A DNA stretch of 53,071 nucleotides from a virus (lineage: Duplodnaviria > Caudoviricetes), in IMG/VR virus record IMGVR_UViG_3300027811_000005, positions 1 through 53,071 of that record; one strand, 5' to 3'. Both the position numbers and the translations under genes were made by a program. Positions 21,369 to 25,495 of the stretch are shown here, piece by piece. Position 1 is the first letter of the stretch. Each line of letters begins with the position of its first letter. The notes beneath the pieces are model-generated. The model saw only the letters and a program-made list of their open reading frames with translations. It did no database searches and was not told the origin of the DNA.

Positions 21369-22355
21369 ATGGGGATGTTTGCACAAGCACAAAGTCAACC
21401 GCCGAAATTACTGGATAGGGTACGTTCGGCAATTCGGATCAAGCATTATTCGTTGAAAACAGAACATTCGTATGTGCAGTGGGTTAGACGTTTTATCCTG
21501 TTTCATGGCAAGCGGCATCCCAGCGAAATGGGTGCTCAAGAGGTCGAGCAGTTTTTGACTCATCTGGCAGTTGAGCGGCATGTGAGTTCCAGCACCCAGA
21601 ACCAGGCTTTCTCAGCATTGCTGTTTATGTACCATGACGTACTTGGACTGGAGTTGAATAACGTGAACGCTATGCGTGCCAAGCGTTCAGTATACATTCC
21701 AACGGTTTTGACCGTTGTAGAAACGCGCAAAGTATTGAGCAACCTTGATGGTGTCTACAGCCTGATTGGGCAGATTCTCTACGGCGGTGGGTTGCGATTG
21801 ATGGAGTGTCTGCGGTTGCGTGTGAAGGATATTGATTTTGAACGGCGCACTCTCACGCTGAGAGATACGAAATCGTATCGAGATCGTGTGACGTGTTTGC
21901 CCGAAGCTGTCGTTGGGTCACTCAGGCTGCACTTGGCGAAGGTGCGCGCTCAATATGATATTGATTTGGCGAACGGAAGAGCGGATGTTGAGTTGCCCGG
22001 CGCGTTGGCACTCAAGTACCCTAATGCTGGAAAGGAATGGGCTTGGCAATATGTCTTTCCTGCGAGCAAGTTTTCAACTGATCCAAGGTCTGGGGCAGTT
22101 CGCCGTCATCATCTATATGAGACGAGCGTTCAAAAAGCCATCAGCAGGGCGGCAAAAGGGACTGGGATAGCTAAGTTGGTTGGGCCGCACACGCTGCGAC
22201 ATTCGTTTGCAACGCATTTGTTGGAAGCGGGTACTGACATTCGCACGATTCAGGAGTTGCTAGGGCATCGAGATTCGAAAACGACGATGATTTACACACA
22301 TGTTGCAAAGTGCGGCGCTGGGATCGTTTCGCCGCTGGATCGGGTTGGATATTAG
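21369..22355 (+). CDS. intI: Integron integrase
   Basis: [37 protein letters not shown]; IntI-specific insert [26 protein letters not shown]...[30 protein letters not shown]. Confidence 0.97.
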
Positions 22356-22368
22356 ATACCCGCAGGGT

Positions 22369-22387
22369 GTCTAATAACGAGTTAGGT
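22369..22387 (+). other. attI-like site
   Basis: GTCTAAT-AACGA-GTTAGGT has the same geometry as the attI1 simple site (TAAA-N5-GTTRRRY); about 14 bp after the intI stop. Confidence 0.75.
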
Positions 22388-22393
22388 GCTTCC

Positions 22394-22615
22394 ATGATAA
22401 TTTGTGAAGTCTGCAAAACGAATCAACGCTACAAAAAGGTGTGGGAAAAATTTGGAAAGCGTGTCATCTGCATGATGTGCGGTCAGCGATACGCCTTTGC
22501 AAAGGACGGCTCTGCAGTTCTAAGAACGCACCTAACTCCCGTTGCAGTTGACGGCGCTGGTAGTACTGACATCGAAGCGAGCGCGGATAGCGACCGCGCC
22601 GCAACTGAACTCTGA
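22394..22615 (+). CDS. Cassette 1: small Zn-ribbon-like protein
   Basis: CEVC...CMMC; reads through attC1. Confidence 0.65.
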   Translation: MIICEVCKTNQRYKKVWEKFGKRVICMMCGQRYAFAKDGSAVLRTHLTPVAVDGAGSTDIEASADSDRAATEL

Positions 22616-22622
22616 GTTGGGC
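22530..22622 (+). other. attC1
   Basis: ACCTAAC...TTGCAGTTG...CAACTGAA...GTTGGGC; GCACCTAAC complements cassette start GTTAGGTGC. Confidence 0.9.
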
Positions 22623-22643
22623 GGACTGCCCAGAAAGGATGAA

Positions 22644-22949
22644 ATGATACACTATAGCGAAACAAAAATTGGTGACATTTTGAAAATCGTTGGGGCTGGC
22701 GCTCCTGGGTATGCTGCCCTGGGTGAACTTGTTCGCGTTGTCGAAGTTCATTCACAATCTGTGTTTGTTGAAAATCGAGACGGCGAGCGCATTGAATTCC
22801 TATTCAATTGCGGTGCGGCCCGTCTTGAGCCAACAGAGTGGACAAAAGATTTTCCCCCATCCGCCCAACTAGTCGTTGCAGTTGACGGCGCTGGTAGCAC
22901 TGACATTGAAGCAAGCGTGGATAGCGACCGCGCCGCAACTGAACTCTGA
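22644..22949 (+). CDS. Cassette 2: hypothetical protein
   Basis: AAGGA RBS; MIHYSETKIGD...; reads through attC2. Confidence 0.7.
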   Translation: MIHYSETKIGDILKIVGAGAPGYAALGELVRVVEVHSQSVFVENRDGERIEFLFNCGAARLEPTEWTKDFPPSAQLVVAVDGAGSTDIEASVDSDRAATEL

Positions 22950-22957
22950 CGTTAGGC
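22863..22957 (+). other. attC2
   Basis: GCCCAAC...GTTAGGC; near-identical to attC1; TCCGCCCAAC complements GTTGGGCGGA. Confidence 0.9.
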
Positions 22958-22971
22958 CGCAAGAGGTAAAC

Positions 22972-23268: not shown

Positions 23269-23329
23269 GCAGGCTCAATTACAATAACGATTCGCGGTCA
23301 CGGGCGCGACTCAAACCCGACCGTTAGGC
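23238..23329 (+). other. attC3
   Basis: GCCTAACAAGGGCTTGGAGCCGACGCC...GGCGCGACTCAAACCC..GTTAGGC; GCGGCCTAAC complements GTTAGGCCGC. Confidence 0.92.
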
Positions 23330-23354
23330 GGCAGCTTCGCCATAGTAGGTCAAG

Positions 23355-24170
23355 ATGAACATTTTCTTTGTTGGGTTGAATCCGAGATGGCAACAATTCA
23401 AATGGCTACCATACGGCCTAAACGTGATGTATTCTGCCGCAGGATTTTGGAGCGGGAATGGTTGGCGACGCAAGCGATACATCAAACACGCTGGGATACG
23501 CTGGCTTGACTGTGGCGGTTTCACGCTATTGAATCGTTACGGTGATTTTCCGTTCACGGTGGTAGCACTGATGAATCTTGTGGCGTTCCTAAATCCGCAC
23601 TACTACGCCAGCATGGATTACCCATGTGAGCCTGACATCTCGCGTAGGCTGGGGCTGATGAACAATGATGAGAGAATCCGCGCCACAGTCACAAACACGG
23701 TTGCGATGATTGAATGGGAGAGCCAAGTTGGCGGCCAGCTTGTGCCAGTGATCCAGGGCTACACACTGGACGAGTACAGAAAATGCGTTGACCTACATCA
23801 CCAGAAAGGAACTATCCGGGAGTACATGGCTGTTGGCTCAATGTGCCGCCGTATCTCTGACGCAGAGTTGCACAATCTCATACCAGGAATAGCGACCCAC
23901 GCGCGGCAGGCGGGGGTGTGACGGTTGCACTTCTTTGGTTTGAAACTCTCTGAATCGTTACGCGATCTGTCAGAGTTCATCTGGTCACGTGATAGCGCGG
24001 TCGCACTCGATGACTATGATTCAGAGTTACGCGCTGGGCGTGGCGGTCGCCGCTGGCCGGTAGGCCAGTCGGAAAAGCGGCAATCGTTCGATGTGTTTTT
24101 CAACAGACTAAATTGTCTCGGTCTGCGCTACACGCTGCCGTCTAACAAGGGCTTGGAGCCGACGCCCTGA
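23355..24170 (+). pseudogene. Cassette 4: TGT/DpdA-like (deazaguanine transglycosylase-like) gene with in-frame TGA at 23919-23921
   Basis: WLDCGGF, SMDYPCEP, PVIQG, AVGSMCRR, then in frame after the stop RLHFFGLK and SRDS (TGT barrel motifs). Confidence 0.75.
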
Positions 24171-24231
24171 GCAGGCTCAATTACAATGACGACTCGCAGT
24201 CACGGGCGCGGCTCAAGCCCGGACGTTAGAA
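24140..24231 (+). other. attC4
   Basis: GTCTAACAAGGGCTTGGAGCC...GGCTCAAGCCC..GTTAGAA; near-identical to attC3. Confidence 0.92.
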
Positions 24232-24242
24232 GGCGAGGAAAA

Positions 24243-24488
24243 ATGAGCGGTATTATAAAAACTTGGTGTCCAGATTGCAGGCGTGAAGTTCTGAATGTGC
24301 GTCCATATCTGCAAGACGGCGACGAATTCATTTGCGGGCTTTGCAATCAAAGGTTCGTAGTTCGCTTTGAACGCCTTTTAACTCATGTTGCAGTCGATGC
24401 AGCTTACTGCGAGTGCTCTGAGTATGTTCCTGCTTTTCTTATCAGCGGCGCACCGTGCACCAACTGTGGAAAATCACAGCGCGGCTGA
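24243..24488 (+). CDS. Cassette 5: Cys-rich Zn-ribbon protein
   Basis: GAGG RBS; CPDC, CGLC, CEC, CTNC. Confidence 0.7.
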   Translation: MSGIIKTWCPDCRREVLNVRPYLQDGDEFICGLCNQRFVVRFERLLTHVAVDAAYCECSEYVPAFLISGAPCTNCGKSQRG

Positions 24489-24504
24489 ATCGCAGACGTT
24501 AGAC
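24376..24504 (+). other. attC5
   Basis: TTTTAAC...TTGCAGTCG...CGGCTGAA...GTTAGAC; CGCCTTTTAAC vs cassette start GTTAGAAGGCG (one mismatch). Confidence 0.8.
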
Positions 24505-24515
24505 GGAAAGCTAGA

Positions 24516-25430
24516 ATGTCAGAACGCGCGAGGTTCTACAACGATGATAGTCTGCTGGTCATGGCGACATTTGCAGAAGGTTTATTCGATGCGATTGTTA
24601 CCGATCCGCCTTATGAAGTCAATTTGAACAAGACGCGCTGTGCTTGGGACAGATGGCCCGAACCTGAGACATGGAAACAGATGTATCGCGTTATAAAACC
24701 CGGCGGGTTGCTGGCATTTACCATTGCGCCGCATGTGGCACACCTGCGCGTGCCAGATGTCTTTTCCGCCGGTTGGGAATTGCTAGAAGTTGGCTTTTGG
24801 GTGTGGGGCAATGGGCGTCCAGTTCGCCAAGACCGCCTAAAAAGGTGTTTTGACTTGGTGTACTTTTGTGGCAAGGGAATGCGCAGCCTATTCACGAATG
24901 ATGCTCGTATGGCGAATCGAGCGAACGCCATTACTGGTAGGCGCGGAAAGGTGACTGCACGCGCTGGTGGTTTGGGGTCTCAATTTCACGATTGCAAACA
25001 CTCACGCTCCTACGAGTGCGCACAAGACGACTATCATCCTGCGAACGTCGCCTGCTCTCAGGATGATGCGCCATTTGAAAAGACAGGCTACGAGTTACTT
25101 TTCGCGGTCAAGCGATTGCTACCAGTTGGAAAGGCGCACACCAAACACCCAACGAAAAAGCCGCTCGACCTGATAGGGCAAATCATCAAGTTGGTAAGCC
25201 GCGAGGGCGACACAGTTTTTGACCCGTTCATGGGTGACGGTACGACTGGCGAGTCGTCGTTGATTCTCAATCGCTCATTTGTCGGGATAGAGGCAGTGCC
25301 AGAGTATTTTGAGCGCGCAAAGAAGAACATCACCGGTGTCGAGGCGCAATTGCACTTGCCCGCTTTCCGTCTAACAAGCGGTTCCAGCCGACGCGCTTCG
25401 CTTGCCGATGTGCAAGATGAGTTGCTATAG
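24516..25430 (+). CDS. Cassette 6: N6-A/N4-C DNA methyltransferase (beta class)
   Basis: IVTDPPY, HPTKKP, VFDPFMGDGTT, FVGIE. Confidence 0.93.
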   Translation: MSERARFYNDDSLLVMATFAEGLFDAIVTDPPYEVNLNKTRCAWDRWPEPETWKQMYRVIKPGGLLAFTIAPHVAHLRVPDVFSAGWELLEVGFWVWGNGRPVRQDRLKRCFDLVYFCGKGMRSLFTNDARMANRANAITGRRGKVTARAGGLGSQFHDCKHSRSYECAQDDYHPANVACSQDDAPFEKTGYELLFAVKRLLPVGKAHTKHPTKKPLDLIGQIIKLVSREGDTVFDPFMGDGTTGESSLILNRSFVGIEAVPEYFERAKKNITGVEAQLHLPAFRLTSGSSRRASLADVQDELL

Positions 25431-25495
25431 ATTAGTGTCTCGCGGTTCGTCGCGCATGGCCTGTGACGCGCGCGGATGAACCGCAGACATTATAT
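25369..25495 (+). other. attC6 (R' degenerate, ATT instead of GTT)
   Basis: GCTTTCCGTCTAAC is the exact complement of start GTTAGACGGAAAGC; GCGGTTCCAGCCG...CGGATGAACCGC stem. Confidence 0.8.

Follow-up and report, generated by a model that had tools for sequence, protein, structure and literature searches.

Integrons are usually regarded as bacterial devices, and the locus described here raises the question of whether a tailed phage may hold one as part of its own genome. The window, by which we mean the whole stretch of DNA analysed, is the entire IMG/VR virus record IMGVR_UViG_3300027811_000005 (53,071 nucleotides), a linear, soil-derived tailed-phage record of ~53 kb with a CheckV estimate of 100%; its positions 21369-25495 carry a gene for an integron integrase (intI), an attI-like site and an array of six cassettes with their attC sites. 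We consider it likely that the locus is a true integron with all its structural parts, lying within the early/replication block of the phage, and that a phage lineage probably maintains it as a resident module. A first-pass annotation, made from the DNA letters, had proposed a complete integron within a bona fide phage genome, and this proposal is supported by the IntI profile match, the virion genes, the virus record itself and separately assembled contigs that bridge the borders of the array.

The integrase gene, the attI site and the cassette array

The elements of the integron are as follows.

21369-22355, plus strand: intI, integron integrase, intact, 328 amino acids; TIGR02249 428.6 bits (cut-off 265)
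22350-22387, plus strand: attI-like site overlapping the intI stop codon, TTAGATACCC-N4-GGGTGTCTAATAACGAG|TTAGGT
22382-22616, plus strand: cassette 1, open reading frame (ORF) 22394-22615, 73 amino acids, CxxC...CxxC; attC1 22530-22622
22617-22951, plus strand: cassette 2, ORF 22644-22949, 101 amino acids, no family; attC2 22863-22957
22952-23323, plus strand: cassette 3, ORF 22972-23268, 98 amino acids, phrog_3849; attC3 23238-23329
23324-24225, plus strand: cassette 4, DpdA / queuine tRNA-ribosyltransferase-like ORF 23355-24170; attC4 24140-24231
24226-24498, plus strand: cassette 5, ORF 24243-24488, 81 amino acids, zinc-ribbon-like; attC5 24376-24504
24499-25489, plus strand: cassette 6, N6/N4 DNA methyltransferase ORF 24516-25430; attC6 25369-25495

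The intact intI with an integron-specific insertion that had been read from the sequence is borne out by two comparisons. The protein covers the TIGR02249 profile over its full length (positions 1-315 of 315), and its scores with the XerC and XerD models fall far under the cut-offs of these models. Residues 15-325 align with the structure of the Vibrio cholerae integrase IntIA (2a3v, E 2e-84), and the alignment is ungapped across the IntI-specific stretch (residues ~190-245), which we take to be the domain contacting the flipped-out attC bases. With the Xer structures (XerA, XerC-like, XerD) the best match is confined to the C-terminal part, and for XerA it comes in two stretches. The catalytic Arg, His-x-x-Arg, His and Tyr are present in the translation and in the 2a3v alignment, and the identity of the catalytic Lys is one that we can only infer. 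The gene starts 9 nt past the stop codon of the preceding gene, the neighbouring long ORFs all lie on the same strand, and we saw no promoter dedicated to intI.

The sequence GTTAGGT at 22381-22387, 26 nt 3' of the intI stop codon, places a G|TTRRRY crossover (between 22381 and 22382) next to intI, as is characteristic of attI. Since intI, attI and the cassettes are all on the plus strand and attI lies 3' of intI, the integrase gene points at attI and the cassettes, and the layout is of the atypical co-directional Treponema type, a layout defined in the accessible part of PMC3607928 and named the "inverted integrase group" in that of PMC3575428.

Past attI follow five GTTRRR sites (four full GTTRRRY and one GTTAGAA) together with one ATTATAT, and a RYYYAAC-type box stands 85-122 nt before each of these six R' sites. 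The attI-like site and the six cassettes of the first-pass annotation are thereby confirmed, with crossover positions at 22381, 22616, 22951, 23323, 24225, 24498 and 25489, cassette lengths of 235, 335, 372, 902, 273 and 991 bp, all cassettes in the orientation of intI, and the end of attC6 at 25495. An automatic chain search starting at attI recovers all six. The R'' consensus is matched in five of the six attC sites, the exception being attC5 (TTTTAAC), and the R' consensus in four, attC4 having GTTAGAA and attC6 ATTATAT; attC2 is nearly identical to attC1.

Cassettes that were inserted as circles are expected to have an R'' end complementary to their own start, and such complementarity had been claimed over 9-14 bp with at most one mismatch. 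It holds for every cassette: 9, 10 and 10 bp without mismatch in cassettes 1-3, 13 bp with one mismatch in cassette 4, 11 bp with one mismatch in cassette 5, and 14 bp in cassette 6. When the six R'' ends were scored over 14 nt against all seven starts, the own start was the row maximum in six of six rows, with own-start scores of 11, 11, 11, 12, 10 and 14 against values of at most 10 elsewhere in the table. Own-start complementarity in all rows implies insertion as a circle at G|TT and is not produced by chance or by simple repeats; each cassette thus bears the footprint of circular insertion at G|TT.

Folding of the attC sites

The attC bottom strands were folded as single-stranded DNA and compared with 200 shuffles each. 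In array form, attC1 (z -4.13) and attC4 (z -4.39) fold better than all 200 shuffles, and for attC2 (z -2.20) three of the 200 were equally good. Closing each attC with the start of its own cassette, as in the circle form, lowers the energies by 3-11 kcal/mol, and attC1, attC2, attC4 and attC6 then form one long hairpin with an unpaired spacer after the R box. These four sites also bulge at single bases along the bottom-strand 3' arm, where extrahelical bases are expected, and the centroid of attC3 is a canonical hairpin. In attC5 the circle form keeps the R-box pairing alone, and this site resembles a cross between the array's two attC families. Bulged-hairpin attC sites are therefore seen at four or five of the six positions, so that the expected bottom-strand folding with extrahelical bases stands for attC1, attC2, attC4, attC6 and the attC3 centroid and fails for attC5.

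A covariance model was built from the six sites, and is circular where the window itself is concerned; across the 53 kb its sole extra match is a weak reverse-strand copy of attC4. Among 80 bacterial loci with an intI gene, the same model found 33 sites (E up to 0.01) beside these genes, which indicates that the sites of the window belong to the general attC family. Results of two other procedures were rejected: an ad hoc hairpin finder accepting any AAC...GTT inverted repeat was dropped, as it gave many matches everywhere on both strands, and chains from a relaxed chain search (three mismatches) were discarded as chance where their folding energy was weaker than -15 kcal/mol.

The phage genome and the soundness of its assembly

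Matches to PHROG families identify genes for tape measure, minor tail protein, terminase large subunit, portal, head-morphogenesis and major capsid proteins, which confirms the full head and tail modules claimed earlier, and the matches to phrog_2, phrog_104, phrog_10 and phrog_1533 on the same contig place it in the Caudoviricetes. The features that flank the integron are the following.

20742-21359, plus strand: PolX-like gene, weakly labelled; Pfam DNA_pol_B_thumb, E 5e-5, 23.4 bits (cut-off 25)
25497-25515, plus strand: weak terminator-like hairpin directly after the array (consensus scan; 10 sites in the region against 6.9 expected)
25599-28793, plus strand: primase, 1064 amino acids; TIGR01391 domain E 7e-32, PHROG label DNA primase

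Of the two neighbours named in the first-pass annotation, which had placed the array between PolX and a primase-helicase, the primase is confirmed, and the PolX label depends on a thumb-domain match below the cut-off. Homologues of the PolX-like gene adjoin intI in three related virus contigs (G001, G005 and G010, see below). Just after the primase gene, an ORF of 135 amino acids (28981-29388) was seen by eye to repeat the C-terminal region of the primase (...DGTAFVRHAD...FIGWYD.LYWYLLD...), and looks like a partial duplication of the end of that gene.

A chimeric assembly at the borders of the array was looked for in Logan contigs from two runs, X1 and X2, which were assembled separately and are probably the source sample of the window, hence not an independent sample. 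These contigs cover 20300-22614 and 22920-26800 with no difference to the window and cross both borders, that between the preceding gene and intI and that between the array and the primase; the sole breaks fall at the near-identical attC1/attC2 repeat, and the depth over the locus in X1 is even (18.5, 16.9, 23). A joining error peculiar to one assembler is thus ruled out. In a further set of contigs, X3, the joints 22615>22910 and 22955>24142 were considered as excisions and rejected, as they belong to a divergent relative and lie within repeated attC sequence. The alignment of X3 contig 18 ends at 22385, 4 nt beyond the attI crossover, which is suggestive only.

Related virus contigs

A scan of virus contigs for IntI gave 67 loci, eight of which share an actin-like, primase, PolX-like or phrog_6247 gene with the window (27-64% identity) and have integrases 46-66% identical to that of the window. 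The actin-like protein is common to the window and the relatives G001-G006 (39-45% identity), and the integrases of all six relatives tested pass the TIGR02249 model (383-426 bits). Three relatives have terminal direct repeats (G003 and G005 127 bp, G009 123 bp) and are thus circular assemblies with IntI inside; all three have a terminase and head genes, G003 and G005 a tape measure, and G005 a major tail protein. G003 and G005 share replication genes with the window, and G009 little besides IntI and a methyltransferase.

An alignment of the 3' end of intI and the adjoining downstream DNA in 13 sequences (the window and 12 contigs) shows a conserved block that runs to an invariant AG|TT, in the context (G/A)AG|TT, after which the similarity ends. 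The block occurs as two types, approximately TTAGTGACCC-N4-GGGTCTCTAA..GAG and TTATTAAAC...TGCTGTTGAATCATGAG, and beyond it the first cassette differs among the contigs. Cassettes of relatives were credited where own-start complementarity and a good hairpin coincided, which gave three in each of G001, G006, G010 and L014, at least four in G009, two in L010, one in each of G003 and G007 and at least one in L049. The single 248-bp cassette of G003 lies between intI and the primase, the position of the array in the window. The cassette proteins of the window, with the exception of the methyltransferase, found no match among 236 fetched loci, and on this account the arrays differ completely between relatives. 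Comparison of related contigs at this locus, suggested as a check in the first-pass annotation, therefore gives the same IntI clade and attI with different cassettes.

Two side observations concern array ends. The last site found in G006 (L035, at the end of the third cassette) starts with an A (ATTAGAA), as does the last R' of the window; such an A may keep the terminal cassette from moving, or it may be due to chance. Three related contigs, L005 (G002), L007 (G004) and L008, end 159-172 bp past intI, within the first cassette, as one would expect if assembly fails where attC sites repeat or arrays are mixed.

Searches with other genes of the window gave mostly negative results. The portal search did not find the portal in nine of ten relatives, and the primase search returned no relatives in the virus contigs. 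A phrog_2 search was blank in five virus records with a terminase of another family, and such blanks carry no weight.

Phylogeny of the integrase

A quick maximum-likelihood tree of IntI was calculated from 130 rows, comprising 75 of the 80 bacterial loci, 54 of the 67 viral loci and the window, after dropping rows with a match below 290 residues or containing a stop codon. The window falls within a clade of 14 rows, all of them virus contigs (SH-like approximate likelihood ratio test, SH-aLRT, 100), so that 13 other virus contigs have their IntI in this clade. The nearest bacterial IntI among the matches listed, from Anaerolineae, filamentous cyanobacteria and Burkholderiales, reach up to 61% identity. 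Structural or replication genes of the window are absent from all 80 bacterial loci listed, and one locus (L137) has an FtsK-like match. A set of 401 Chloroflexota genomes contained 28 IntI, none above 62% identity.

A protein search returned many metagenome IntI that are 64-73% identical to that of the window. With 121 of these metagenome proteins added, the clade grew to 135 rows (support 100, FastTree) and contained none of the 75 bacterial-genome rows. A metagenome scan gave IntI of up to 63% identity among the matches listed, and missed the relatives at 70-73% that the protein search had returned. A second all-viral IntI clade (12 rows, L015-L026, support 99-100) branches among the IntI of Pseudomonadota and Acidobacteriota; two of its members, L020 and L024, show the classical divergent layout, with attC-like matches upstream of intI and on the other strand.

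Cassette cargo

The methyltransferase of cassette 6 (PF01555, 100.4 bits; phrog_67), the DpdA / queuine tRNA-ribosyltransferase-like ORF of cassette 4 (PF23859; phrog_1279) and the protein of cassette 3 (phrog_3849, function unknown) match phage protein families, that is, three of the six cargo genes. Cassettes 1 and 5 code for small CxxC proteins with weak similarity to each other. DNA methyltransferases are recurrent cargo across the relatives: G009 has an N6/N4 methyltransferase (PF01555, 101.7 bits) along with a radical-SAM protein, G010 a C5 methyltransferase (PF00145, 37.3 bits), and the cassette of L014 a weak D12-like match below the cut-off. From the known roles of these enzyme families, the cargo of methyltransferases, a DpdA-like enzyme and small zinc-ribbon proteins would serve mostly for evading host restriction and defence.

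In cassettes 1 and 2 the reading frame extends across the attC site, and the two proteins (at 22560-22615 and 22894-22949) therefore share a near-identical C-terminal tail of 24 residues, VAVDGAGSTDIEAS.DSDRAATEL, for which the recombination site itself codes.

Evidence against a phage-borne module and alternative explanations

A number of observations weigh against an intact integron kept by a phage lineage and should be set beside the evidence given above. Within the array, the last R' (25489-25495, ATTATAT) has an A in place of the expected G; in array form attC6 is weak (z -1.90, 12 of 200 shuffles equally good), attC3 is not better than shuffles (z -0.97) and attC5 no better than shuffles (z +0.22), to which the circularity of the attC model may be added. 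An in-frame TGA (23919-23921) interrupts the DpdA-like ORF of cassette 4, also in the source-sample contigs, and the same frame continues beyond it; the gene is either a pseudogene or contains a recoded stop. The G+C content is ~0.51-0.53 in the array against ~0.60 in the flanks. A crude consensus scan, the consensus of which may not be that of the host, found no sigma-70-like promoter on the plus strand between 19000 and 26000, and with it no cassette promoter (Pc) at intI or attI. The source-sample contigs contained no clean excision joint or recombination product. Among the relatives, L011 (G005) and L012 gave no credible attC, and IntI above the cut-off was found in none of ten virus genomes with the portal type of the window (41-56% identity), which indicates that the integron travels with the replication block and not with the virion module. 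Finally, the viral exclusivity of the IntI clade is not proven, the bacterial and metagenome figures being those among the matches listed, and three members of the enlarged clade, with IntI 65-71% identical to that of the window, lie on contigs of 203, 329 and 532 kb, which may be integrated prophages or chromosomal arrays.

The alternative that survives best is one that refines the phage-borne module and is compatible with it, namely that the phage is an extrachromosomal prophage whose integron works in a plasmid-like phase, which we regard as possible, though on balance unlikely. Genes at 15228-16220, 6885-7850 (minus strand), 12036-13463, 13482-14441 and 19257-20681 code for an ALP_N actin-like protein, two tyrosine recombinases, a phrog_6247 protein and an FtsK-like protein. 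The actin-like segregation protein (PF17989, ALP_N, 62.8 bits; labelled as partition protein in PHROGs), which G001-G006 have in common, favours this explanation, as do the FtsK-like protein and the two further tyrosine recombinases, and together with the phrog_6247 protein (a "topoisomerase" without Pfam family) they suggest that the phage may be temperate or may live in the manner of a plasmid. There is also a precedent in the class 1 integrons reported on P1-like phage-plasmids (PMC9892861). On the other side, a large serine integrase in G005 points to chromosomal integration of that relative. A further gene on the minus strand (31970-33214, PAPS-reductase with DUF3440, phrog_2302), within a stretch of lower G+C content at 31-34 kb, marks what looks like another accessory island.

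A second alternative is that the integron is a passive passenger, acquired from the chromosome or a plasmid of a host, with no role for the phage and in decay. The low G+C content of the array, the nonsense codon in the DpdA-like gene, the degenerate last R' and weak attC5, and the ten phages of the same portal type without IntI would all fit a passenger, and captures of host integrons are how the complete integrons found in phages in 2023 were interpreted (PMC9892861, accessible part). We consider it improbable nevertheless, given that IntI is intact in the window and in all six relatives tested, and that attI is conserved across the related virus contigs with a different first cassette in each. 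The absence of all 75 bacterial-genome rows listed from the IntI clade, the phage families matched by the cargo of three cassettes and the distance of only 9 nt between intI and a phage gene likewise speak against it.

It is very unlikely that IntI doubles as the phage integrase and inserts the whole phage circle into a host integron attI or attC: a Vibrio prophage flanked by two attC sites provides a hint in the literature (PMC9892861, accessible part), against which stand the two other tyrosine recombinases able to serve integration and a portal search of five bacterial genomes that found no portal and no prophage copy. Least probable is an assembly chimera or host contamination, with a bacterial array joined to phage DNA or a prophage boundary drawn too wide, for although the source-sample assemblies break at the attC1/attC2 repeat and the linear record has no end repeats, the array is flanked on either side by phage genes of the same strand, the contigs of two separately assembled runs cross the borders without differences and at even depth, and three relatives are circular assemblies containing IntI.

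Comparison with known integrons

The statement in the first-pass annotation that integrons are rarely described in phages has to be corrected in view of prior art. Qi et al. 2023 (PMC9892861), in the part accessible to us, report three complete integrons among 10,705 phage genomes, along with 17 attC clusters and a single integrase lacking cassettes, and recombination of five of six phage attC sites with attI1. The complete cases are those of Vibrio phage Va_90-11-286_p16, an E. coli P1 isolate and Shewanella prophage M16-3; like the window, these have intI, attI and attC cassettes in a phage record, and the paper also mentions DNA methyltransferases among the cassette cargo of phages. Their integrases, in contrast, are host types (Vibrio IntIA, IntI1, Shewanella IntI) that are 42-52% identical to the IntI of the window, and the cases are described there as captured fragments or as lying in a cryptic prophage, whereas 14 virus contigs, each with an attI of its own, have the IntI clade of the window in common. 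When 50,697 phage records were searched by tblastn, the records of Qi et al. came up at 42-52% identity, as did Virus Rctr41k. In the literature we found no phage lineage with its own integron class beyond PMC9892861, the supplementary tables of which may list further records, and no IMG/VR survey. The bare presence of an integron in a phage is thus already known, and the picture at the level of a lineage appears to be new.

Virus Rctr41k (KX853513.1, L263), a member of the Caudoviricetes, has an IntI at 4680-5678 (TIGR02249, 383.3 bits; annotated as xerD) that is only 45.9% identical to that of the window. Downstream on the same strand lie small genes and two that resemble methyltransferase genes, and the attC sites of this virus are unconvincing with the six-site model (E 0.036-0.12). 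Integrons of the Treponema denticola type are chromosomal and sedentary, and the window is likened to them by the co-directional layout alone. The best solved relative of the window IntI is V. cholerae IntIA (IntI4), 2a3v, and neighbouring attC sites resemble one another in the window as they do in sedentary arrays of the V. cholerae type. The V. cholerae integron has a divergent layout and hundreds of cassettes, whereas the window has six co-directional cassettes in a virus. The integrons in metagenome-assembled genomes of Chloroflexota, Cyanobacteriota, Acidobacteriota and Burkholderiales provide the closest bacterial IntI listed (up to 61%), and their arrays are matched by the attC model of the window; none of the IntI listed from these chromosomal integrons falls inside its clade.

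A possible role for the phage integron

We tentatively suggest, as an explanation that is plausible though short of probable, that a phage lineage keeps an integron class of its own, with an IntI clade specific to phages, attI sites of two conserved types and a co-directional array in an early operon, as a platform for swapping counter-defence genes, the mirror image of the bacterial integrons that stock anti-phage cassettes. In the mechanism that we consider most likely, IntI would be made with the phage early genes as part of a phage operon, since its gene starts 9 nt after the preceding one and shows no promoter of its own. It would recombine the folded bottom strands of attC sites with attI, whereby promoterless accessory genes could be added, dropped and reordered. 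As no promoter-like site was found on the plus strand, transcription of the cassette genes would depend on read-through from phage promoters lying upstream. That the phage uses IntI to acquire and reorder its own accessory genes, as the first-pass annotation had it, is an inference: we observed neither an excision circle nor a different array in the same phage, nor any recombination activity. The system is small, consisting of one recombinase, one attI and few attC sites, and is thus directly testable.

The phage integrons published so far resemble accidental captures of host integrons. If a phage lineage does keep its own integrase and attI together with a cassette array of rapid turnover, phages have a site-specific route of their own that is dedicated to the exchange of accessory genes, in this case mostly genes for DNA modification, and the locus would offer a defined place in which to find new counter-defence genes. 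It would also constitute a further source of phage mosaicism, and would link the cassette pools of phages and bacteria.

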